Source: a plasmid
Assembly: GCF_056746865.1 (NCBI RefSeq)
Contig: NZ_JBWKMP010000003.1
Direction: 5' to 3' (one strand)
Length of the DNA stretch: 64,000 bases
The notes beneath the pieces were generated by a model. That model did not search any database and had not been told where the DNA came from. It worked only from the letters and a program-made list of their open reading frames with translations. Positions 11,274 to 54,012 of this stretch are shown one piece after another; position 1 is the stretch's first letter; each line of letters opens with the position of its first letter. Both the position numbers and the translations under genes were made by a program.

Positions 11274-11387
11274 GCTAAAAGCTAGCTTAATTTTCTAACA
11301 CAGTGTGTTTTTATACACTGTTGATCCGACGGCACGTGATCGAGTAGGATCGCGGTCACTGCTCCGGTAGCGACTGCCAAAAAAAGC

Positions 11388-28487: not shown

Positions 28488-28880
28488 ATGGAGCAAATCA
28501 GTAGCGCCGAAATAGCGGATATCATGATCAGGGCTAACTGCTATCTGACGGTCACCGAAATCACCAGCCGTGCAAAAGCACAATATCCTCACCTTCATGT
28601 GTCGCGCGTAAACGTAAATAACATCATACGTTTTTTTGTTCGTTCCAGTCGTGCCATTTGCGAAATAGACGACCGCGTATACCCCCGGAAATATTGGTTA
28701 CATGGCCTGAATGGATACCAGTTCAAGGTGCGCGGGCGCACTCCTGAATTCGGTCGGCTGTTGGTGAAAAACACCAACCGAAAGATAGAAGCTCAATTAC
28801 GAAAGGAGCAGCGTCAGTTGGTGGCGATGACTAACCAGCTATGGAACGCCGCTGTGAAAAAACGTGAGGCTTCCCTATGA
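28488..28880 (+). CDS. Hypothetical regulator-like protein in the Lpa position (immediately upstream of pacA-like)
   Basis: 130 aa, RBS ggggg-ataa-ATG, overlaps the pacA-like start; function inferred from P1 synteny only. Confidence 0.4.
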   Translation: MEQISSAEIADIMIRANCYLTVTEITSRAKAQYPHLHVSRVNVNNIIRFFVRSSRAICEIDDRVYPRKYWLHGLNGYQFKVRGRTPEFGRLLVKNTNRKIEAQLRKEQRQLVAMTNQLWNAAVKKREASL

Positions 28881-30241
28881 CGTTAATTAACTGGGAAGCG
28901 CATCGAGCTAAGTTCCTGGAGTTAAGAGAAGAAACCGGGATCACCATAAAAGAATATTGCGAGCAGCATGACCTCAGCTTTAACACCGCCAGAAAGCATC
29001 TCAATATGAAAAAAAATGAGGTTAAGGCGAAAGCTAAGGCTACCGGGAAAAGTACAAAACAGCGCGCAAAAAGCAGCGCCACCGGCTCAAAAAAAGAGCA
29101 AAAAAAGGCTAATAAAAGCACAGAATTTACAAAAACTGACAAATCGTTGGCTGGTGGACGGTTCCGCGCCATGCCGCAAAAACAAAATGCGGATCACAAA
29201 GAAAAGCCAAGTAATAACAACAAGATACACAAGGATGTGAAGGGATCATTTTGTGATGAAATGGGAGAAATGATCCCTAAAAGCAGCGATAAAGCCCAAC
29301 GAAACAAGGGATCATTGCAAATGATCCCTGATTCATCAGCTCAAAGCACCACTTTGCCTGCCACCAACGTCGCCCGTGAGATGATGAAGAACGGCGCGAC
29401 TGAACATTTACGACTTGCGATACAGATGGCGCAGGAACGAGCAATTCAGTATCAGGCTATCGTTGACCAGGAAGCGGAGCGACTACAGGAAGAGATTGAC
29501 GCCCTCGGTGATACACAGCCAGAGGGGATGCACCCAGGGCAGCGTCTTCTCGGACTGATCAGCGATGCGGCCTACTACATGAATGACTTTATCACCAGGC
29601 TGGCAGCCATCTATCAGAACGAGCAGAAGCTACGCCAGGGGGATGAAAAACTTGCGCAGGGCGCGCGTCAGCAGGCATTCAGGGAGGCTGAGGCCAGAGA
29701 AAAACTGGCGATTGCCCGCCTACAAGCCGAGCAGCGTGGCAAGGAGATTGAGTATCGCATTGGCGCTGACGCACGCGCCGCCAGGGTTATCGCCGCCGCT
29801 ATACGTATGCGTGAGCGCGAGGAGCTGGATGATATAGGTGTTGCTGAATATATCGAGCGGCAGGGCGTCAGTGTCCCGGCTATCCTGGCGGCACGAGCGG
29901 CAAAAGCGATCTCACTTCTGGAGCCTCCGGTTTCTGACGTTAACGATGTTGATGATGAGCAACTGGATAAAGAGGCGAAGCAGTTTGCCGAGCAACAAGC
30001 TGGACTCCCACAATGGCTTGCACAACGCCGGGCTGAAGTAGCGAAAATCGTTGATAGGCTTGGGATGGGGGATTACGACCGGAACGGAGAACGTAAAGCC
30101 GGTGAATTTGAGGCCAATGATGAAGACCTGAATATAGACCCTTCCGCGACGGCTGATATCTACGGTGATTATGACGCGGGGGATACCGGTTTTGATGCTG
30201 TAGATGACGAGATTGCGATAGACCAGCCGGAGGATGACTAA
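28877..30241 (+). CDS. PacA-like terminase small subunit (contains pac-like hexamer cluster)
   Basis: 454 aa immediately upstream of and coupled (ATGA) to the large terminase; HTH-like N-terminus, acidic C-terminal tail; internal cluster of Dam-site hexamers like the P1 pac site inside pacA. Confidence 0.55.
   Translation: MTLINWEAHRAKFLELREETGITIKEYCEQHDLSFNTARKHLNMKKNEVKAKAKATGKSTKQRAKSSATGSKKEQKKANKSTEFTKTDKSLAGGRFRAMPQKQNADHKEKPSNNNKIHKDVKGSFCDEMGEMIPKSSDKAQRNKGSLQMIPDSSAQSTTLPATNVAREMMKNGATEHLRLAIQMAQERAIQYQAIVDQEAERLQEEIDALGDTQPEGMHPGQRLLGLISDAAYYMNDFITRLAAIYQNEQKLRQGDEKLAQGARQQAFREAEAREKLAIARLQAEQRGKEIEYRIGADARAARVIAAAIRMREREELDDIGVAEYIERQGVSVPAILAARAAKAISLLEPPVSDVNDVDDEQLDKEAKQFAEQQAGLPQWLAQRRAEVAKIVDRLGMGDYDRNGERKAGEFEANDEDLNIDPSATADIYGDYDAGDTGFDAVDDEIAIDQPEDD
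29191..29327. promoter_or_regulatory. pac-like site: five GATC-containing hexamers (GGATCA x3, TGATCC x2) including two inverted copies of AATGATCCCT
   Basis: Hexamers at 29191, 29243, 29271, 29309 and 29322; aagggatcatt and aaatgatccct each occur twice. Confidence 0.5.
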
Positions 30242-31749
30242 TGGCTGGTGGTCGTAAGATTAAGTGCGTCACCAGTGATCCACGTTGGCGCGATATGGTT
30301 ATCAGGTATCGATACAACTTTACCCAGGCGGTTGTCGATATTTTTGGGATGTTCCCCTCCCACCAGCAGCAGCAGATCATTCAGTCAGTGCAGGAGACGG
30401 GGAGCAGGACGACCGTTACGTCCGGACACGGAACGGGTAAGTCGTCCCTTACCGCGATGTTGCTACTAATTTTTATGATCCTGTTCCCCGACGCCCGCGT
30501 CATTATTGTTGCGAACAAAATAGGCCAGGTAAAAACAGGCGTATTCAAATACGTGAAACAGTTTTGGGCGAATGCTGTTAAGCGCCACGGCTGGTTACAG
30601 ACCTATTTTGTCCTGTCTGACACCATGTTTTATGAGCGTTCCCGTAAAGGGATATGGGAAGTGCTCTGTAAAGGTTATCGACTCGGTAACGAAGAGGCAC
30701 TGGCGGGGGAGCACGCGGAGCATTTACTGCTAATCCTTGATGAAGCATCGGGCATATCCGATAAGGCGATTAACGTCATGACGGGGGCGTTAACGCAGAA
30801 AGATAACCGTATGCTCATGCTTTCCCAGCCTACGCGTCCAAGCGGTTACTTTTATGAATCTCACCATTCAAGGGCAAAGGCAGAAGGCAATCCGGAAGGT
30901 GTCTGGACGGCAATAGTCCTTAACTCTGAAGAATCACCATTCGTTGAACCGAGCTTTATTCGTGAGAAATTGCTGGAGTACGGCGGCAGGGATTCGCTGG
31001 AGTACATGGTTAAGGTGCTGGGCCAGTTCCCGCGTGCAATTAACGGGTATTTGCTTGGTCGTGATGAGTGCGACCGCGCCGCACGGCGTAAAGTGTTGCT
31101 GGAGAAAGATTGGGGCTGGGTAGCGACCGCTGACGTCGGTAATGGTCGCGATAAATCGGTGCTCAATATATGCAAAGTATCCGGTTATCGTGAGAAACGA
31201 CGCGTTGTGAACTTTAAGATACTGGAGATGCCAGGCACTATGGACCCGTTGGCTTTTGCCGACTTTATCTATAACGAATGCACTCCTGATAAATACCCGA
31301 ACATCACCATTGCTGTGGATGCTGATGGCTTTGGTTCAGATACGTGTGCGCAGCTTGTCCGCCGTGGTGCTAATCCCGTTCGCATCCGTTGGGGTAAGCC
31401 TATGTTTGCGCTAAGAGACAGAGAACGCTTTGTCAATCAGCGTGCTTACGCCAATATTATGGCAGGGGATGCCATTAAATCCGGGCGTATGCGTATCGAT
31501 AGTGACCCCAAAACCGCAGATCAGGCATCAAAAATCCCGTATATGCTTAACGAAGAAGGGAAGGTAGCGATGATGCGCAAGGAGCACATGCGGCAGAAGT
31601 TAAACATCAAGTCACCGGACAGATGGGATACCTACTGCTTCACTATGCTGGTGGATTACGTGCCTGCTAATGAAGACATTGGCGCAGAACTCGCAACATT
31701 CCGCGATCAGGTGTTGGCAGAAGTGGATATTCCTGATATTGACATTTAA
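30241..31749 (+). CDS. PacB-like terminase large subunit
   Basis: 502 aa; P-loop GHGTGKSS, Walker B LLLILDEASG, C-terminal nuclease-like region with VDADGFG; coupled to the upstream small-subunit gene. Confidence 0.75.
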   Translation: MAGGRKIKCVTSDPRWRDMVIRYRYNFTQAVVDIFGMFPSHQQQQIIQSVQETGSRTTVTSGHGTGKSSLTAMLLLIFMILFPDARVIIVANKIGQVKTGVFKYVKQFWANAVKRHGWLQTYFVLSDTMFYERSRKGIWEVLCKGYRLGNEEALAGEHAEHLLLILDEASGISDKAINVMTGALTQKDNRMLMLSQPTRPSGYFYESHHSRAKAEGNPEGVWTAIVLNSEESPFVEPSFIREKLLEYGGRDSLEYMVKVLGQFPRAINGYLLGRDECDRAARRKVLLEKDWGWVATADVGNGRDKSVLNICKVSGYREKRRVVNFKILEMPGTMDPLAFADFIYNECTPDKYPNITIAVDADGFGSDTCAQLVRRGANPVRIRWGKPMFALRDRERFVNQRAYANIMAGDAIKSGRMRIDSDPKTADQASKIPYMLNEEGKVAMMRKEHMRQKLNIKSPDRWDTYCFTMLVDYVPANEDIGAELATFRDQVLAEVDIPDIDI

Positions 31750-31786: not shown

Positions 31787-32824
31787 TTACCAGAGTTTTG
31801 CCGCGTACATCGTTTGTGTGAATGTGTACCCATAGCGTTCTTCAACGCTTTTACCGTATTTTTTCCTGGCTTCAGTAAGGCGGATGCCTGTCAGGTCATC
31901 GCCGGAGGCAATCATAACTTCCAGTAGTTCCAGGTCCATTTTATCCAGCCTTGCCATTGCATCTTTAGCCTCTTGAATTTTCCGGCTAACGATCTGGTGT
32001 ATGGCTGGATCGGCTTCGGCCAGCATTTTATCTGATTTGTTTTTTAAACTCTGATTGCGGATATCAATGTTTCTCAGGATATATGACTTCACGACGTAGC
32101 TTGGCTGCTGCTTTTCCAGATCACGAACCCGATAAAGGTCAAATTCGCCGAGAAGTCCGCACGGAAGCGGTTTAATGCCAGTGTAAATGGTAAGGGTGCG
32201 GCGCTCACCAACGTTGTTAACAACGGGAATCTCTGTGTTTGCTTTTTTTGCAAAGATCAGCGCACCGTGCGTACCCACTCTGAAGCGTGAAAGTCCATTG
32301 TTGCCCTCAATATTGGTGGTAATCACCACATCGGTATAACCTTCTTTTCTTGCGCGGTATACCTCGCCCTCACGTTCAGCGGCGAAGAATCTGCGTTCTT
32401 CTTCAAGCGCACCGACAACCTGTGAAAATATCCTGTTTTTCATGCTTTTCTTTATAGTTTTATCGTATTTTTTCAGCAGGTCTTCGCGCGTAAATGTTCT
32501 CGTTGTGGTTGCGCTTTGCATAACGATGTGCGTACTCTGATTAGTATCCTCAACAATGAATGGGATCGGTAAATAAACCGACTCAACAATGTTTGAGGCT
32601 TTGTCATCATCCTTGCGACACAGATCAACAAAGGCTTTCCATTCGGCTATGCATTTTTCAGCTTCTTCTAATACAGCCGGATCATGTGTTAATGCAACAT
32701 GGCGAAATTCCTCGCCAACATAACTGGTATCATGGAAAACAGAGTTTGCGACCACCAGCTCTTTCCACCTTTCAGCGGTTTGCAGGAACCGTTTGTACTC
32801 ATTCTCGATCGACTTCTTACTCAT
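31787..32824 (-). CDS. Hypothetical 345-aa protein; candidate immunity repressor (P1 c1 position: convergent with pacB, next to lox/cre)
   Basis: Best start is the internal ATG (MSKKSIENEY) with RBS aggaa; an operator motif TGTTAGAAAA lies immediately upstream on the coding strand; no recognisable domain by eye. Confidence 0.45.
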   Translation of the reverse strand: MSKKSIENEYKRFLQTAERWKELVVANSVFHDTSYVGEEFRHVALTHDPAVLEEAEKCIAEWKAFVDLCRKDDDKASNIVESVYLPIPFIVEDTNQSTHIVMQSATTTRTFTREDLLKKYDKTIKKSMKNRIFSQVVGALEEERRFFAAEREGEVYRARKEGYTDVVITTNIEGNNGLSRFRVGTHGALIFAKKANTEIPVVNNVGERRTLTIYTGIKPLPCGLLGEFDLYRVRDLEKQQPSYVVKSYILRNIDIRNQSLKNKSDKMLAEADPAIHQIVSRKIQEAKDAMARLDKMDLELLEVMIASGDDLTGIRLTEARKKYGKSVEERYGYTFTQTMYAAKLW

Positions 32825-32843
32825 TATTCCTACTCGATTTAGT

Positions 32844-32853
32844 TTTCTAACAT
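32844..32853. promoter_or_regulatory. Operator motif TTTTCTAACA in the promoter of the repressor-candidate gene
   Basis: Dispersed motif family member; a second copy at about 32927-32941. Confidence 0.45.
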
Positions 32854-33019
32854 AAAAGTCCTGTGACAAATTTATGCTGAATAACAAGGTGAGTAAAGGA
32901 TAAAACCGCTTTTTTTTGATTGTTCCTATTAGAAAATGTAACCAGGAGCGGCTACCGCATGGCTGACGGATTTGCGAAGTGATCTGGTCGGTGTTTTTTT
33001 GGGAAAAAAGTTCCGATTT

Positions 33020-33053
33020 CTAACTTTAAATAATTGGCATTATTTAAAGTTAG
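33020..33053. promoter_or_regulatory. lox-like recombination site (13-8-13): CTAACTTTAAATA ATTGGCAT TATTTAAAGTTAG
   Basis: Perfect 13-bp inverted arms around an asymmetric 8-bp spacer; same architecture as loxP and 9/13 arm identity to it; 150 bp upstream of the Cre-like gene. Confidence 0.7.
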
Positions 33054-33204
33054 GCTATAATCTCCAGTAAACAGGCAGTATTGACAAGGATGAAAAATCA
33101 TGCCTCGAATCAAAGGCTTGAATTTTGAAAATTAACTTATAACTACCCTGTCAGTTTTCTATTTTTCACGTAGCGTTATCTGTATATAGAGGTTTAATAG
33201 TTTC

Positions 33205-34233
33205 ATGGGTGAACTAGTTATCTCCGGCGGTTCTGGTGGTTTTCTGCGCGATATTGGCACCGAATACCAGGAAGCTGCAAAAAACTTTATGCAGTTCATG
33301 AACGACCAGGGAGCTTATGCTCCAAATACGCTTCGAGATCTCCGTCTGGTGTTTCATTCCTGGGCGCGGTGGTGTAATTCGCGCCAGCGCCCCTGGTTCC
33401 CGATTACGCCGGAAATGGCCCGCGAGTATCTTCTCCAGTTGCATGAGGCCGATCTGGCCTCGACCACCATTGATAAGCACTATGCCATGCTTAACATGCT
33501 GCTTTCGCAATGTGGCCTCCCGCCGCTGTCGGACGATAAAAGTGTGTCTCTGGCCATGCGGCGCATCCGGCGCGAAGCGGCAACGGAAAAAGGCGAGCGA
33601 ACAGGCCAGGCTATACCGTTGCGGTGGGATGATCTGAAATTGCTCGACGTGTTGCTGTCCCGTTCCGAGCGGCTGGTGGACCTGCGCAATCGGGCGTTTC
33701 TCTTCGTGGCATACAATACCCTGATGCGTATGTCAGAAATCTCGCGCATCCGCGTCGGAGATCTGGACCAAACAGGTGACACTGTAACGCTGCATATTTC
33801 ACACACGAAGACCATCACGACCGCCGCCGGACTTGATAAGGTGCTTTCTCGTTACACTACCGCCGTACTGAACGACTGGCTGGAGGTGTCCGGACTTCGA
33901 GAACATCCGGACGCGGTGCTATTCCCGCCAATACACCGCAGTAATAAGGCCAGAATCACGACAACGCCCCTTACTGCACCTGCAATGGAGAAAATATTCA
34001 GCGATGCCTGGGGGTTGCTGAACAAACGAGATGCCACGCCGAACAAAGGAAGATACCGGACGTGGACAGGCCATAGTGCGCGTGTTGGTGCGGCAATTGA
34101 TATGGCTGAGAAACAGGTGTCAATGGTCGAGATCATGCAGGAAGGTACATGGAAAAAGCCCGAAACACTTATGCGATATTTGCGCCGTAGCGGGGCATCC
34201 GTTGGTGCAAATAGTCGCCTGATGGACTCATAA
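33205..34233 (+). CDS. cre: Cre-like tyrosine site-specific recombinase
   Basis: Colinear similarity to P1 Cre as I recall it (SWARWCNSRQRPWFP..., NMLLSQCGLPPLSDDKSVSLAMRRIRRE, WTGHSARVGAAIDMA, C-terminal Tyr in LMRYLRR); ORF-track start is non-ATG. Confidence 0.9.
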   Translation: MGELVISGGSGGFLRDIGTEYQEAAKNFMQFMNDQGAYAPNTLRDLRLVFHSWARWCNSRQRPWFPITPEMAREYLLQLHEADLASTTIDKHYAMLNMLLSQCGLPPLSDDKSVSLAMRRIRREAATEKGERTGQAIPLRWDDLKLLDVLLSRSERLVDLRNRAFLFVAYNTLMRMSEISRIRVGDLDQTGDTVTLHISHTKTITTAAGLDKVLSRYTTAVLNDWLEVSGLREHPDAVLFPPIHRSNKARITTTPLTAPAMEKIFSDAWGLLNKRDATPNKGRYRTWTGHSARVGAAIDMAEKQVSMVEIMQEGTWKKPETLMRYLRRSGASVGANSRLMDS

Positions 34234-34277
34234 ATTAATTTTCTAACAACCTTTTTAGACAGTGCATTTTAATGTAA

Positions 34278-34306
34278 AGTACCCTCGCCTATTGCGGAGG
34301 GTACTT
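34278..34306 (+). terminator. Strong hairpin after cre-like (no T-run)
   Basis: aagtaccctcgc-ctatt-gcggagggtactt. Confidence 0.4.
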
Positions 34307-34650: not shown

Positions 34651-35135
34651 AAACTTACTACCCATCCCTGAACTGTTATCCAACCACTAATCCTGAGCTG
34701 TCAGGGAAACTTCTGTCCCTCCTGGCTGATAGTCCTGATGAATGGCATAAGCCTGGTGATATCAACACACAGTTCCCTGAGTACGGGTGTATCCGCACCC
34801 GAAATGAGCTGAAGAACCTCATTGCTCACGGTTTTGTCCGTCACCGTAGCGGGAAAGGCTATCAGTTGGCTATCCCACAAGGAGAGGCAAGAGAACTCTT
34901 TGGCTATCGAGAAAGCCAGACGCAAGCGCGGGTGATCGCAGAAATTATCCGTAATGGCAGCGTCTATGCCCGCAAATTCTGGCTGTCTGGCGGTGGTGAT
35001 GCATCACAGTTCTTGCGTGCTGTGCGATCGCTGGAGGAACAAGGTGTTATCGAGAATACCTGCGTCTCCGTTCCGACCGCTCCGCATATCAAACGCCGGA
35101 TTTATACATTTACCCGGAGAGCTAAAAAGCAATGA
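34647..35135 (+). CDS. Hypothetical protein (162 aa)
   Basis: ATGA-coupled ORF in an operon with dut. Confidence 0.45.
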   Translation: MKTYYPSLNCYPTTNPELSGKLLSLLADSPDEWHKPGDINTQFPEYGCIRTRNELKNLIAHGFVRHRSGKGYQLAIPQGEARELFGYRESQTQARVIAEIIRNGSVYARKFWLSGGGDASQFLRAVRSLEEQGVIENTCVSVPTAPHIKRRIYTFTRRAKKQ

Positions 35136-35626
35136 TTAACGTGAAAGTGAAACGCCTTCATCCGGCGGCAAAACTCCCCGTTTACGCCACCGCCGGATCG
35201 GCGGCGATGGATTTTGTTGCTGTTGAAATAACGCCGGGTATCGATAGCAACGGCGCTATTTCCTCAAGCTGGTGGGTGCATACCGGCCTCGCTATGGCGA
35301 TCCCTCCTGGCTGGTGTCTGAAACTTTATCCTCGTTCCGGATTGGGCTGCAAAAAGCATACGCGCCTGGCTAACTGCGTAGGAATTATCGACTCCGATTA
35401 TCGCGGTGAAATCAAAGCAAAACTGATTACAGATCCCGGTGGTGAAGGCGTTTGCCTCAAGCCAGGAATGGCGGTCATGCAAGGCATTTTTGAGCGTGTT
35501 GAACCGGTATCGCTGGTAGAAGTTGATGAACTCGATGAAACAGAGCGAGGTGCTGGTGGCTTTGGTAGCACATCGGAAGACCGCATTGAAATCAAGCGTA
35601 CACCGCTTCAGTACGCAAAGTTTTAA
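35132..35626 (+). CDS. dut: dUTPase (trimeric dUTP pyrophosphatase)
   Basis: All hallmark motifs: AAMDF, PRSGLG, GIIDSDYRGEI, RGAGGFGSTS. Confidence 0.85.
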   Translation: MINVKVKRLHPAAKLPVYATAGSAAMDFVAVEITPGIDSNGAISSSWWVHTGLAMAIPPGWCLKLYPRSGLGCKKHTRLANCVGIIDSDYRGEIKAKLITDPGGEGVCLKPGMAVMQGIFERVEPVSLVEVDELDETERGAGGFGSTSEDRIEIKRTPLQYAKF

Positions 35627-35640
35627 GTAGAGGAAAGGCT

Positions 35641-36291
35641 ATGAATAACATGCCAACGAAAGAGCTTTTTAAGTTCCTTCCCAAATACAAAGCTCACAAA
35701 AACGTTAGTGCATCGAAAATTAAAAATGTTGTTATTTTCGGAGTAACTGATGCCCCACTTTGGGGCTGCATCGAACTCGTTGAACCAAAAGGGGCAACAG
35801 TTTGTGTTGACGCAATGTTTTTACAAAAACACCGACCAAAAACTGGCGGGTATCTGATCGTTTATGAAAACGGTTATCTGTTCTATGCCCCGGAGAAACC
35901 ATTTGAGGAATGCTATGGCCTGGTTAACGACGCCTCCAAAAATGGAACCACGGTCATCATTACGGATGACAACGGCGTGATGATTAATCTTACTGGGAGC
36001 GTAACTATTTCTGCTGGTGGCATCACCACCCAGCAAGAAGAAATCGACCTTGAAGCAGCCGACTTCTCTGATGCGCTAATGTGGTTGAAGGAAGGCAAGA
36101 AAGTTGCCCGACGCGAGTGGAAAGGCGAAAAGCAATTCTGCTGGTTAGTTCTCGCTGGAAGCGTCAATTTACACGGCATTCACGTTCCTTATGGTGACCA
36201 TTTTGTATTGAAAGATGCACAAAATATGGACAGCGTTTGGTTGCCGTCTGTGGATGATTTACTGGCCTGTGACTGGTTTGTTGTGGAGTGA
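35641..36291 (+). CDS. Two-domain protein with a C-terminal DUF2829 (Tad2-like) domain
   Basis: C-terminal FSDALMWLKEGKKVARREWKGEKQFCWLVLAGS ... VWLPSVDDLLACDWFVVE fits the DUF2829 pattern; N-terminal ~140 aa unassigned. Confidence 0.6.
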   Translation: MNNMPTKELFKFLPKYKAHKNVSASKIKNVVIFGVTDAPLWGCIELVEPKGATVCVDAMFLQKHRPKTGGYLIVYENGYLFYAPEKPFEECYGLVNDASKNGTTVIITDDNGVMINLTGSVTISAGGITTQQEEIDLEAADFSDALMWLKEGKKVARREWKGEKQFCWLVLAGSVNLHGIHVPYGDHFVLKDAQNMDSVWLPSVDDLLACDWFVVE

Positions 36292-36297
36292 TTTAAC

Positions 36298-37104
36298 GTG
36301 GAAAATACCAAGAACATTCAATATCGCTTGCGTAACGGCCTGCTGGTGGATGTAAACGATGATATGTCCCTGCCCTTTGCCACCATTGAGCGAACCATCC
36401 TTACATACCTGGGCTTAGACGAAGAGTTAGATAGTGAGAATGGCATTGCTATCTGGCGTGACGGAAAAACGGGAGTCAGACGTTTTATTACGGCAAGAGG
36501 CATTCAGTGCACACAGGAAGAATTGTTTGAACTGGCGCAGTCTTATGGATGCATCGCGTTAGATCCCCTGTATGACCCAGCCATAGCACAACAACTCATT
36601 CGAGAGCTGTCGCTTTCGGTCACGCCAATAATCTTCCGCCAGGGAACCTTAACCGGCACATGGCGTGTAGAACGCATCTCTAAATATCAGCCATATAATA
36701 TCCATTTGAACGGCACTATTACTGGTGTGGATCAACCAGTAGCAGGTGAAAACAAAGACCTGGAACTTGCAGTAATGATGGCAGCTTGTCGCGTGCTTGG
36801 CCTGGGCAAGCAGATGTTTATCCATTTCCCAAACGGCGCGGAAGGCGAAGTAGAGCTGATTTCCTGCGACTTTTCCTTAACCTGGATGCTTGATGAATTC
36901 CTGGACAAAACAGTATTCCGTGCTGAAGAACTGGATATGTATGTCACCTCAAGTATTCCTAATGACGTGAAAGTTGAGGCCATCGCTACAGCCAGGGCGA
37001 AATGCCGTGCGGCGATTGCAGAACAGGCCAAAGAAGAACAGTCCGATGAAGTCGCGGCAGATGTGGAGGCAGAGGTAGCGGAGGATGCTGATGCTGACGC
37101 CTAA
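36298..37104 (+). CDS. Hypothetical protein with acidic C-terminal tail, coupled to the terminase-like paralog
   Basis: 268 aa, GTG start per ORF track; overlaps the next gene by 20 nt. Confidence 0.45.
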   Translation: MENTKNIQYRLRNGLLVDVNDDMSLPFATIERTILTYLGLDEELDSENGIAIWRDGKTGVRRFITARGIQCTQEELFELAQSYGCIALDPLYDPAIAQQLIRELSLSVTPIIFRQGTLTGTWRVERISKYQPYNIHLNGTITGVDQPVAGENKDLELAVMMAACRVLGLGKQMFIHFPNGAEGEVELISCDFSLTWMLDEFLDKTVFRAEELDMYVTSSIPNDVKVEAIATARAKCRAAIAEQAKEEQSDEVAADVEAEVAEDADADA

Positions 37105-38191
37105 AAACATCACCGAATTACCAGAGTGGAGAGAGCTGGTAAGCAAATATAGCCATGACTGGGCATTAGCAGCAGAAGAGTTGATGGGTGTTAAGTTAAC
37201 CCACCAGCAAAAGCTAATTGTTGAGGCGATTCAACAAAAAGGTTCAGCAGTCAGCGTCACCACTCCTGAAGGGATAGGCCAAAAGACGGTTATCGCTATA
37301 ATTAGTATTCTTTATACAATCCTGATGCCTGAGTCTAAAACGGTTATTGTTTCCCCAAAGTTCTATAATTGTCGCAGGCAAGTTATCCAATACATAAGTA
37401 CGTATTGGGATAGAGTCAGTAACAGAATCCCATTGCTGGGAGAATATTTTAAAGTCGACGGAAACGGCATCAATCATCGTTACCGGGAATATTGGGGCTG
37501 CGAAATTAAGCCATATCACCGAAATTATGAGGAAGGTTTCGGTGGATATTATGCTGAACATCTTTTAATCATTGTTACGGAGGCGGCTCTTGCTGGCGAT
37601 CGGCTATTCAGCATGTTAAGAGCATCGTTAGTAAGTGACGATTCACGTATACTTTTAATGTCCGCTCCTTCAGAGGAGGAGCATGGACACTTTTACGATT
37701 CCCATCATGGTCGTGCAAAATCAGAAGAAAATCCATGTGGTATTTATACAGCCATCAAGCTGAACGCAGAAGATACCCCCATTATTTCACAAGGTTATCT
37801 TGATAACATTGCAGAAATATATGGTGGTAAAAACAGCGATTACTACCGTCGCATGATTCTTGGTGAGTTTCCAGGTATTAGGGAGGCTGTTCTTGAATCA
37901 GATATGCCGAAAACAATGCGCTTTTCGATGCCTGATGGTAGTGAATGGATAATGCCATTACGAGTGATAGCCCGGCATCATGCACAGCACCACGCCAAAA
38001 AACATGGCGTTACAACATTGGAGTGGTTGAAATCGCACACCATTCCACTCTTCACTGCAGATCACAATGCTATCGTTGAGTGGGCAAAAACAATTCCGTG
38101 GGAGAATGTCGCTGAATACGCCCACATGCTAAAACCGCCGAAAGACAGGCAAGAAATTAGCTGGCTGACAGCAGAAAAAATCATTGAGTGA
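37085..38191 (+). CDS. Terminase-large-subunit-like ATPase-domain paralog with degenerate Walker motifs and no nuclease domain
   Basis: Alignable to the PacB-like gene (HQQKLIVEAIQQ / HQQQQIIQSVQE; HGHFYDSHHGRAKSEENPCGIYTAIKLNAEDTP / [33 protein letters not shown]), but P-loop reads GIGQKT instead of GTGKS and Walker B reads VTE instead of LDE; 368 aa without the VDADGFG nuclease region. Confidence 0.6.
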   Translation: MLMLTPKNITELPEWRELVSKYSHDWALAAEELMGVKLTHQQKLIVEAIQQKGSAVSVTTPEGIGQKTVIAIISILYTILMPESKTVIVSPKFYNCRRQVIQYISTYWDRVSNRIPLLGEYFKVDGNGINHRYREYWGCEIKPYHRNYEEGFGGYYAEHLLIIVTEAALAGDRLFSMLRASLVSDDSRILLMSAPSEEEHGHFYDSHHGRAKSEENPCGIYTAIKLNAEDTPIISQGYLDNIAEIYGGKNSDYYRRMILGEFPGIREAVLESDMPKTMRFSMPDGSEWIMPLRVIARHHAQHHAKKHGVTTLEWLKSHTIPLFTADHNAIVEWAKTIPWENVAEYAHMLKPPKDRQEISWLTAEKIIE

Positions 38192-38226
38192 TAGTAGGAA
38201 GCCCGCCTGGTTGAGCGGGCTTCTTT

Positions 38227-38607
38227 TCAAATATTGGAACCATATAGTTCACGTAGTTTATCCGCTACTGAAGATACGGGGATTTCACCAGTTGCAGCCC
38301 CCACCGCAAGTTCCACCAGCACGGGAGAATCATATACCTGTATACCGTTACGGCGTAGAAATAGCAGCGCACTGTTTAGCGCGGTACGCTTATTGGCATC
38401 ATTGAATATATGCCCTCTCGCTGTAGCCACCAGGTAGGTGGCGGAGACTTCGAAAAGGTCGGTGATCTCTTCGTAGGCAACTCTGGCCTGAACTCTCCCG
38501 ATAATGGCCTCTGCCCTGCCCGGATCTGACATGCCAGGCAGGCCGCCGTAGCGGCTTATATTCGCATCATGAAGCGCAATAAGTTCTTCCGGTGATATAT
38601 GCCTCAT
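38227..38607 (-). CDS. doc: Doc toxin (Fic-fold kinase) of the phd/doc addiction module
   Basis: 126 aa; [78 protein letters not shown] matches P1 Doc as I recall it almost residue for residue. Confidence 0.92.
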
Positions 38608-38828
38608 TATCGGTTAACCAGTTCCTTGTTGGTGGAGTCCAGGGTGTCAAACAGGGATGCAAATTCAGCATCCAGCGCCGCTTTTTTGTAGGCTTCGAAA
38701 GTAGCCTTGCTGACAATTACTGCTGGCTCACGGCCTCTGCGGGTGATTTCAACCTCTTCCCCGGCTTCAACATTGTTGAGCACTTCAGAAAGGTTGCCAC
38801 GCGCGGTACGGAAGTTAATGGATTGCAT
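38607..38828 (-). CDS. phd: Phd antitoxin
   Basis: [73 protein letters not shown] matches P1 Phd as recalled; stop overlaps the doc start. Confidence 0.92.
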
Positions 38829-38900
38829 AAACACCTCGTGTACTCGTTATGTGTACACAATTATAAACTTCACAGGCATAAAGCACCAGCACTTTGCAGC

Positions 38901-39290
38901 TTAAATAACCGGACAATCATCAAATTCCCCACTTCGGGCATCATTGATGACATGAGTGATCACACCAAAAACAGCATTACTGCCCGTGTATCCATCGTCA
39001 TCTACTGGTAACGCCTCTTTCTTCCCGGTGCTTAAGTCCTCCAGGTGCTGGCGCGGATACTTCCTGTATCTCTTTATGCGATATTCACCCTCCATAGCGC
39101 ACACAAGCAGAGAACCATCAACCGGAGTAAGCGAGGAATCAACCACCAGCAAAGCACCCTGCAATATTCCCTCACGGTGATGGCTATCAGCTGCCCGCAT
39201 GAAGTAGGTCGCTGAAGGATGTCTAATTATCTGCTGATCAAGAGAAATTCGGCTTTCAACATAATCCGCCGCAGGAGAAGGGAAGCCCAT
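38901..39290 (-). CDS. humD: HumD-like UmuD' homolog
   Basis: GFPSPAADYVESRISLDQQIIRHPSATYF aligns with UmuD; lacks the N-terminal autocleavage segment like P1 HumD; lies upstream of phd/doc as in P1. Confidence 0.8.
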   Translation of the reverse strand: MGFPSPAADYVESRISLDQQIIRHPSATYFMRAADSHHREGILQGALLVVDSSLTPVDGSLLVCAMEGEYRIKRYRKYPRQHLEDLSTGKKEALPVDDDGYTGSNAVFGVITHVINDARSGEFDDCPVI

Positions 39291-53345: not shown

Positions 53346-53377
53346 GTGTTAGAAAATCAATTTTGATTTTCTAACAC
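53346..53377. promoter_or_regulatory. Perfect operator palindrome GTGTTAGAAAATCAA-tt-TTGATTTTCTAACAC
   Basis: 15-bp arms are exact reverse complements; sits between the divergent minus-strand operon and the ref-like gene. Confidence 0.6.
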
Positions 53378-53421: not shown

Positions 53422-53997
53422 ATGAAGCAAAGCTATTGGGAGAAACAGACACAAAAAGCCCTGCAAAAACTGGCTGATCCGAAATGGCGGGAGGAACAAA
53501 GGGCAAAGCGTCTTCAGCAAGCTCAACGCCAGCAGCAGCGTGCGCGAGAAAAAGCCGCATCGCCTGAATATCGGCAAAAGAAAATTGAAAAAGCGAAGCA
53601 ATATGAACAGCGAAGAAAAGAGAAGGCCGCTTCTGCTCCTGTCAAAAAAACTCGCGCGTCACGCGGCCTGAAAGGCAGAACACTCACAGCAGATGAGCGC
53701 CGGATACAAACTGCCATCGGTGCTCTCCCCTGCATTGCCTGCCATATGCACGGACAGCATAGCCCTGTGGTATCCCTGCACCACATCTTCGGGAGAACAG
53801 CAGAAAACGCGCATAAATACGTCCTCCCTTTGTGTAAATGGCACCATCAACACGCAGCGCCAGCAGAGATCCGCGAGCAATACCCCTGGTTGGTTCCTGT
53901 TCATGCTGATGGAAAAATAGGCGGCAAAGCAGATTTCAGGCGGCACAATGCTGATGAAATGACGTTGTATCAGATGGTGACTGAATTAATAAATTAA
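53422..53997 (+). CDS. Ref-like HNH-type nuclease with a basic disordered N-terminal region
   Basis: Lys/Arg/Glu/Gln-rich N-terminal ~80 aa followed by Cys/His cluster CIACHMHG ... HHIFG ... CKWHH; same architecture as P1 Ref as I recall it; start could be TTG at 53380. Confidence 0.45.
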   Translation: MKQSYWEKQTQKALQKLADPKWREEQRAKRLQQAQRQQQRAREKAASPEYRQKKIEKAKQYEQRRKEKAASAPVKKTRASRGLKGRTLTADERRIQTAIGALPCIACHMHGQHSPVVSLHHIFGRTAENAHKYVLPLCKWHHQHAAPAEIREQYPWLVPVHADGKIGGKADFRRHNADEMTLYQMVTELIN

Positions 53998-54012
53998 TTT
54001 TCTAACATTTTA
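53990..54012. promoter_or_regulatory. Operator-like motif AAATTAATTTTCTAACATTTTA
   Basis: Dispersed motif family member. Confidence 0.45.

Follow-up and report, generated by a model that had tools for sequence, protein, structure and literature searches.

The DNA analysed here (64,000 nucleotides, referred to throughout as the window) is one strand of plasmid contig NZ_JBWKMP010000003.1 (NCBI RefSeq assembly GCF_056746865.1); its source is a P1/D6-like phage-plasmid, and its closest records are E. coli plasmids of ~90 kb with 99.5% identity. The locus under study (positions 36298-38191, in which similarity to phage D6 is limited to the first 764 bases) carries two genes on the plus strand: a homolog of the P1 gene isaA (36298..37104, 268 aa) and a second gene (37091..38191, 366 aa), the product of which resembles the ATPase domain of PacB, the large terminase encoded elsewhere in the window, and is referred to below as the paralog. 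The paralog is a conserved pseudo-enzyme of PacB descent to which a small phage domain has been fused. It is neither a packaging enzyme, nor one half of a small and large terminase (TerS/TerL) pair, nor a pseudogene. Both open reading frames, the overlap between them and the convergent doc gene (38227-38607, minus strand) were present as described in the original prediction, an earlier reading of the nucleotide sequence. That reading had placed the start of the paralog at 37085. The frame is indeed open from this ATG (368 aa), but the ATG at 37091 is favoured because the Shine-Dalgarno sequence GGAGG, read from the sequence within the 3' end of isaA (37080..37084, plus strand), lies 6 nt before ATG 37091 and 0 nt before ATG 37085, and because the public gene models of the paralog have 366 aa. 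With the start at 37091, the paralog overlaps the end of isaA, stop codon included, by 14 nt.

The paralog was compared with the resident PacB (30241..31749, plus strand, 502 aa), a canonical enzyme with matches to TerL families of the PHROG collection and with intact GTGKSS and LLLILDEA motifs. BLASTP aligned the product of 37085-38188 with PacB at 33% identity and 59% similarity over 258 aa (E 1e-51); the alignment ran from residues 7-263 of the paralog over residues 8-264 of PacB with no large gaps. The resemblance first noticed by eye was thus borne out, at a level that chance cannot account for. In the ungapped alignment of the Walker A region, GTGKSS of PacB (aa 64-69) lies over GIGQKT of the paralog (aa 61-66; 37271..37288, plus strand), and at Walker B, LLLILDEA lies over LLIIVTEA (aa 158-165; 37562..37585, plus strand). 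The position of the P-loop lysine is therefore taken by Gln and that of the Walker B aspartate by Thr, exactly as had been proposed, and no intact Walker A or Walker B motif was revealed by the alignment. The GIGQKT allele does contain a Lys one residue past the canonical position (GQKT), but this residue is not conserved in the family.

In order to follow these substitutions beyond the window, a family set was collected from the protein database, plasmids and IMG/VR (45 copies, corresponding to 30 distinct proteins). All 45 copies are full-length open reading frames (354-368 aa) with no frameshift or stop codon. Five allele classes were distinguished by the Walker A region and by the residues at the two positions of the Walker B "DE" pair: GIGQKT with TE, GIGHKS with MD, GIGRPQ with VD, GIGETS with IN, and GVGT[TK]T with LN. 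None of the 30 distinct members has GK[ST] at the P-loop position, the lysine being replaced by Q, H, R, E or T, and in none is the Walker B DE pair, or an Asp where Mg would be bound, present. The same motifs were inspected in 113 full-length PacB relatives (true TerL proteins), which served as a control: every one of them keeps hhhDE, and the strict pattern G.GK[ST] was found in 100; those exceptions to the strict pattern that were looked at individually (P0202 and P0280) do carry GK[ST]. Retained in the paralog are the Q-motif glutamine, the P-loop glycines, the motif III serine and the FYDSHH block. The window contains one PacB and one paralog. Of the features that mark a large terminase, the paralog has the ATPase fold (see below) and lacks Walker A, Walker B, the nuclease domain and a place in the packaging module, as it lies after the dut, Tad2-like and isaA genes and away from pacA-pacB (28877-31749). 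The N-terminal domain (N-domain, aa 1-261; 37091..37873, plus strand) goes back to an ancient duplication of the P1-type PacB ATPase domain and has since lost the catalytic residues.

The match to PacB stops at residue ~264, and the nuclease half of PacB has no counterpart in the paralog. The absence of the nuclease domain had been recognised in the original prediction; what had been overlooked is that the protein is not merely truncated, since residues 262-366 form a separate conserved domain (C-domain, ~105 aa; 37874..38188, plus strand) with no relationship to the terminase nuclease. When 1.84 billion representative proteins were scanned in full with HMMER (cut-off E ≤ 1e-3), 190 representative relatives of this domain were obtained, equivalent to ~190 clusters at 50% identity. 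Most of them are stand-alone proteins of 90-180 aa, and a few form the terminal part of long phage proteins with coiled coils (phrog_17928, positions 399-486 of which are matched by the C-domain of the paralog). The consensus reads MPDGSxWxVP..IA..RA..YA...TxPLF....I.DWA.NNM.W.DV...GW.NG. The C-domain had no match in Pfam, NCBIfam or PDB sequences, and when its alignment was used against Pfam, a single insignificant match (DUF5076) was obtained. Stand-alone C-domain genes are found among small genes of early type, for example near a gene for an ERF recombinase or an H-NS-like protein. The two domains also occur in reverse order: in one relative (L008, 6001-8384) the C-domain comes first and is followed by a dead terminase domain with the motif GSGTGTTT. 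A Tn3-family transposase gene, which runs on the other strand, truncates the gene for this relative, and an AbiH gene and a gene for a RecA-dependent nuclease are located nearby. In the paralog the nuclease domain has accordingly been replaced by a separate conserved domain of ~100 aa, which elsewhere is a stand-alone phage protein, and two previously unannotated protein families, the paralog and its C-domain, are hereby defined.

Structure prediction and profile searches, both suggested beforehand as a check on the terminase assignment, gave results of two kinds. An AlphaFold2 model of the paralog, built from a 52-sequence alignment, had a predicted local distance difference test score (pLDDT) of 93.4 and a predicted template modelling score (pTM) of 0.87. 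The best 31 PDB matches obtained with Foldseek were all TerL proteins or TerL ATPase domains (P74-26, Sf6 gp2, D6E, T4 gp17 and HK97; E down to 1e-8), the terminase chain of the Avs3 complex was a lower-ranked match, and the matches among the predicted viral structures of BFVD were likewise terminases. Searches of Pfam, NCBIfam and PADLOC gave nothing for either the paralog or the IsaA homolog, and profile searches against PDB sequences gave neither a terminase nor a relative of the C-domain. Because sequence profiles reached no terminase structure and no Pfam family, the N-domain is linked to the solved TerL structures by fold comparison alone.

Selection was assessed separately for the two domains. 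Within allele classes the ratio of nonsynonymous to synonymous polymorphism (pN/pS) was 0.12-0.32 for the N-domain and 0.13-0.19 for the C-domain; between classes the ratio of nonsynonymous to synonymous divergence (dN/dS) was 0.2-0.5 and 0.04-0.17, respectively. In a neighbour-joining tree, the paralogs form a single clade, sister to PacB of the P1/D6-like elements, with longer branches. Tree, selection and intact copies together fit one old duplication followed by the loss of catalysis, and do not fit recent decay. The N-domain is highly variable between allele classes (52-75% identity), most of all at residues 81-100 and 121-140 and least at residues 201-260, and the C-domain is 97-98% identical across D6-like alleles. 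In two D6-like elements PacB is 100% identical, whereas the N-domains of the paralogs are 52% and the C-domains 98% identical, from which it follows that the paralog does not track the packaging enzyme. A nucleotide identity profile along the locus resolved the Tad2-like gene, isaA and the N-domain of the paralog as three independently varying modules, followed by the C-domain and the doc-phd region at 96-100% nucleotide identity.

The gene pair is matched by 130 plasmids in PLSDB. Among 5,426 complete E. coli genomes, 91 contain a match to the paralog, which is plasmid-borne and single-copy in every case; about half of these matches (~50 D6-like plasmids, e.g. NZ_CP165739.1 and NZ_CP021537.1) consist of only the last 37-43 nt of the gene, at 100% identity. 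These remnants, at which no gene is annotated, look like a deletion scar that marks repeated loss of the paralog. Clustering at 90% identity gave one cluster of 122 and another of 392 members, drawn from E. coli and Salmonella; the members listed are all annotated as "hypothetical protein".

The 268-aa protein encoded upstream was identified by its similarity to P1 IsaA (46% identity over 262 aa, E 1e-84) and to D6 orf113, annotated as "similar to P1 gene isaA" (72% identity); it also matches phrog_2326. It had previously been taken for the small subunit of a TerS/TerL-like arrangement. This idea is unsupported because the upstream gene is an isaA homolog and is not TerS-like: hhalign of the 268-aa protein to PacA gave a probability of 0.2%, and the alleles of the two genes reassort freely. 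The acidic tail pointed out earlier is present in the protein from the window and is missing from several homologs. No Pfam match was obtained for the protein, and no conserved nuclease motif was evident among the invariant residues of IsaA. The dN/dS of the gene is 0.11-0.27. Co-variation of IsaA alleles with paralog alleles was considered and rejected, as IsaA of the window type and of the D6 type each occur with several paralog classes, giving several combinations. The pairing of isaA and paralog is usual, not obligatory, because one distant element (L007, 4610-7098) has a paralog of 38% identity (P0007) directly after a DnaB-type helicase gene, with no isaA upstream.

In the P1-like genome MH422554, which has no IS1, a gene for a 364-aa protein with 49% identity to the paralog of the window follows isaA, between ssb and hxr. 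In reference P1 the slot from ssb to hxr is filled by isaA, IS1 and isaB, with IS1 and isaB standing where the relatives have the paralog. No second terminase-like match was found in reference P1, in which tblastn detects pacB alone, and the model phage P1 therefore has no paralog; D6 likewise has none. P1 isaB was also considered as a possible remnant of the paralog and was rejected, since IsaB (201 aa) has no similarity to it.

In D6-like elements the gene order is dut, Tad2-like gene, isaA, paralog and convergent doc; in P1-like elements it is ssb, sometimes a Tad2-like gene, isaA, paralog, and the convergent hxr and dar anti-restriction operon. The Tad2-like gene, isaA and the paralog constitute a mosaic cassette that recurs at two different genome positions, one in the D6-like and one in the P1-like elements. 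The first gene of the cassette in the window (35641..36291, plus strand) follows dut (35132-35626) and encodes a 216-aa protein with a C-terminal Tad2-like domain (PF11195, DUF2829; aa 141-215, E 6.1e-18); a gene of this kind stands before isaA in the D6-like loci and also in several of the P1-like ones. The N-terminal half of the 216-aa protein is not present in D6, and the alleles of this gene vary independently of their neighbours. DUF2829/Tad2 proteins sequester Thoeris signalling molecules (10.1101/2023.05.01.538930). The isaA homolog starts with GTG at 36298, directly after the stop codon of this gene, with GGAG at 36285-36288, and is translationally coupled to both flanking genes. The paralog is the last gene of this tightly packed plus-strand run. 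Downstream of it a GC-rich, terminator-like hairpin (38198..38227, plus strand; GAAGCCCGC, 8-nt loop, GCGGGCTTC, then TTTT) closes the operon and touches the stop codon of doc; its core (38205-38220) was also picked up by a scan. The genes doc, phd and humD (38227-39290, minus strand) lie beyond it.

Signals that might govern the expression of the cassette were sought in the window. The consensus of the P1 C1 operator gave no match in the window with three or fewer mismatches. The 18-bp motif GTTAGAAAATTAATTTAT, half of which resembles the P1 operator Ossb, occurs in six copies at the same tolerance, compared with 0.06 expected (34230-34247, minus; 53989-54006, minus; 53348-53365, plus; 33123-33140, plus; 23452-23469, plus; 11282-11299, minus). 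These copies may be operators of the large 366-aa repressor encoded at 31787-32887 (minus strand). The copy at 34230..34247 (minus strand), which separates the recombinase gene from the start of the gene run ending with the paralog, is a candidate operator of that operon. In P1, isaA begins 30 nt past ssb, the promoters of which overlap Ossb. Since a dispersed operator-like motif with partial resemblance to Ossb is found upstream, and since P1 isaA follows ssb with its Ossb operator, repressor-controlled early expression of the cassette is a reasonable inference.

Several further features of the surroundings were recorded. The gene for the PacA-like protein (28877-30241, 454 aa) precedes pacB; this protein has a long Lys/Ser-rich insert of low complexity after its N-terminal helix-turn-helix region and is 27-33% identical to PacA of related IMG/VR elements, in the same loci in which PacB is 73-74% identical. 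Upstream of the Cre/Dre-like recombinase gene (33205-34233), a perfect pair of palindromic arms (TAACTTTAAATAAT-TGGC-ATTATTTAAAGTTA) at 33021-33052 resembles the rox-type recombination site annotated in phage D6, and the best sigma-70-like promoter match of the region (33034-33061, 11/12) overlaps this palindrome. Between the recombinase gene and the next open reading frame there is a GC-rich hairpin (34262-34305; GTACCCTCGC, loop, GCGGAGGGTAC), the stem of which is immediately followed by the predicted TTG start of that frame (34306); it may be a terminator or attenuator that divides the recombinase gene from the downstream operon.

With regard to function, the paralog would be unable to hydrolyse ATP, probably unable to bind it, and unable to cut DNA, so it would have to act by binding. 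Its ATPase-like domain appears to diversify independently of the nearly invariant resident PacB, and its gene adjoins one of anti-defence type in what seems to be a repressor-controlled early operon. The shape of a terminase that has been kept while the use of ATP was lost, the diversification against a fixed PacB, the anti-defence neighbour and the early-looking operon together suggest a non-catalytic mimic of the TerL ATPase domain that would be used in conflict between phage and host or between phages. This reading is favoured tentatively and is judged to fall somewhat short of an even chance. The most plausible binding partner would itself be variable and would recognise the fold of the TerL ATPase; host terminase sensors of the Avs1-3 or Upx type are the leading candidates, with the packaging proteins of rival phages as the alternative. 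The ATPase domain of the terminase is what Avs2 and Upx recognise, and the ATP bound to the terminase is contacted by EcAvs2 (10.64898/2026.04.30.721860). In its most specific form, the proposal would be that of a pre-emptive decoy: made before PacB, the ATP-less fold would occupy Avs1-3 or Upx and block assembly of the active oligomer, and the hypervariable domain would track the diversity of the sensors. This form is quite unlikely to be correct as it stands.

A number of observations speak against a mimic employed in conflict. The T4 protein vs.8 activated the sensor and did not block it (10.64898/2026.04.30.721860), for which reason a simple blocking model is disfavoured. The known anti-Avs proteins are not terminase-like, and among the PADLOC defence models no family matched either protein at E ≤ 0.1. 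The dN/dS ratio never exceeds 1, so that recombination among old alleles, instead of an arms race, could account for the hypervariability. The argument from the neighbourhood draws on one Tad2-like gene, and many P1-like loci do not have it; the operator and the early timing are deduced solely from sequence motifs. Finally, the activity of the protein may reside in the strongly conserved C-domain, with the terminase-like domain as no more than a scaffold or targeting module.

This last possibility amounts to an explanation of its own, in which the C-domain would be the functional unit, active in an early-phage role, and the dead terminase domain would serve only as its scaffold or to recruit it to DNA, PacA or the procapsid. 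It is unlikely, although it deserves to be taken seriously: the C-domain is far more conserved than the N-domain in both identity and dN/dS, it occurs alone in ~190 clusters, often in early or recombination regions (near ERF, or on coiled-coil proteins), and its fusion to the terminase-like domain exists in either order. The low divergence of the C-domain has a further source, however, in recent recombination shared with the doc region, because its synonymous divergence (dS) is low too. Moreover, purifying selection within classes acts on the N-domain as well, which is intact in every copy and has been maintained in at least five old allele classes.

Interference with packaging, which was among the functions offered in the original prediction, would require a dominant-negative action in which the dead domain joined or capped, in a P1-like phage infecting the same cell, either the complex of PacA and PacB or the motor ring of PacB and so stalled packaging. 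The retention of the fold and of N-terminal helices shared with PacB is in keeping with this mode of action. Ring ATPase motors are sensitive to inactive subunits. Inhibition of TerL by a satellite is known from Gpi of the phage-inducible chromosomal island-like elements (PLE; 10.1101/2024.04.22.590561). The hypervariability of the paralog weakens the case: PacB of D6-like elements is 91-100% identical, whereas divergence of the paralog domain among these elements reaches 48%, and a conserved target of this kind would give the paralog no reason to diversify. In addition, the resident PacB would be poisoned as well, no protecting feature being seen, and in an apparently early operon the paralog would already be present when the phage makes its own PacB. 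Packaging interference is therefore regarded as doubtful.

A regulatory paralog, which would hold PacA or PacB of its own phage inactive until late infection or during lysogeny, is improbable. Its kinship with PacB, the preserved N-terminal region and expression signals separate from those of the pacA-pacB operon would suit such a role; on the other hand, the paralog does not co-vary with the resident PacB, and reference P1 and D6, both isolated as phages, do without the gene. The partner gene isaA was moreover found to be non-essential in P1 by CRISPR interference (PMC10695390).

A decaying duplicate or unexpressed pseudogene is scarcely credible: the catalytic residues are gone, P1 and D6 have lost the gene altogether, and about half of the E. 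coli plasmid matches are reduced to its end, but the uniformly intact copies with low pN/pS, conservation since before the P1/D6 split, a good ribosome-binding site, translational coupling, the terminator and the very confident AlphaFold2 model all contradict decay.

The non-catalytic mimic is of interest because bacteria detect tailed phages by the terminase as a main molecular pattern, and because its motor is a target of satellites. If the decoy model were true, no earlier anti-defence protein would share the origin of the paralog, which would descend from the same phage protein that the immune sensor detects. Irrespective of its partner, the family is carried by common phage-plasmids of E. 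coli and Salmonella and offers a handle on how mimicry of their own packaging enzyme might be turned to use by phages; its definition also explains what P1 lacks at its IS1 site and corrects scattered annotations as "terminase large subunit".

The paralog can be compared with several known systems. With PacB of the P1/D6-like phages it shares homology across the whole ATPase domain (33-38% identity), the fold, the conserved blocks listed above and the block GGxxSxEY; unlike PacB, it lacks the Walker A lysine, the Walker B DE pair and the nuclease, ends in another C-terminal domain, is encoded away from the pacA-pacB module and shows hypervariability in contrast to the conserved PacB. The isaA/isaB locus of P1 is similar in that the 268-aa protein is an IsaA homolog and the cassette fills the same ssb-to-hxr slot in P1-like elements, and dissimilar in that P1 IsaB is unrelated to the paralog, the position of which is held by IS1 and isaB. 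The anti-Thoeris sponge Tad2 corresponds to the cassette through a domain of the neighbouring 216-aa gene only: it has no sequence kinship to the paralog, and the 216-aa protein, the activity of which is putative, is longer than Tad2 of SPO1 (89 aa). A search of the literature for dead or decoy terminase paralogs gave none beyond T4 vs.8, which, like the paralog, is a second, nuclease-less copy of a terminase (gp17) ATPase domain encoded outside the packaging module (10.64898/2026.04.30.721860). In a comparison made by description only, vs.8 differs in that it is reported to keep Walker A and Walker B, whereas the paralog has lost both and has acquired an extra domain. Packaging-interference proteins of satellites, such as Ppi of the Staphylococcus aureus pathogenicity islands (SaPI) and Rpp of the phage-inducible chromosomal islands (PICI), are no terminase homologs and act on the terminase by binding and not by catalysis. 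The same holds for PLE Gpi, which acts on the terminase by binding (10.1101/2024.04.22.590561). Gpi differs from the paralog in being encoded by a satellite and in not being a terminase homolog, whereas the paralog, for which binding is putative, descends from the terminase itself.

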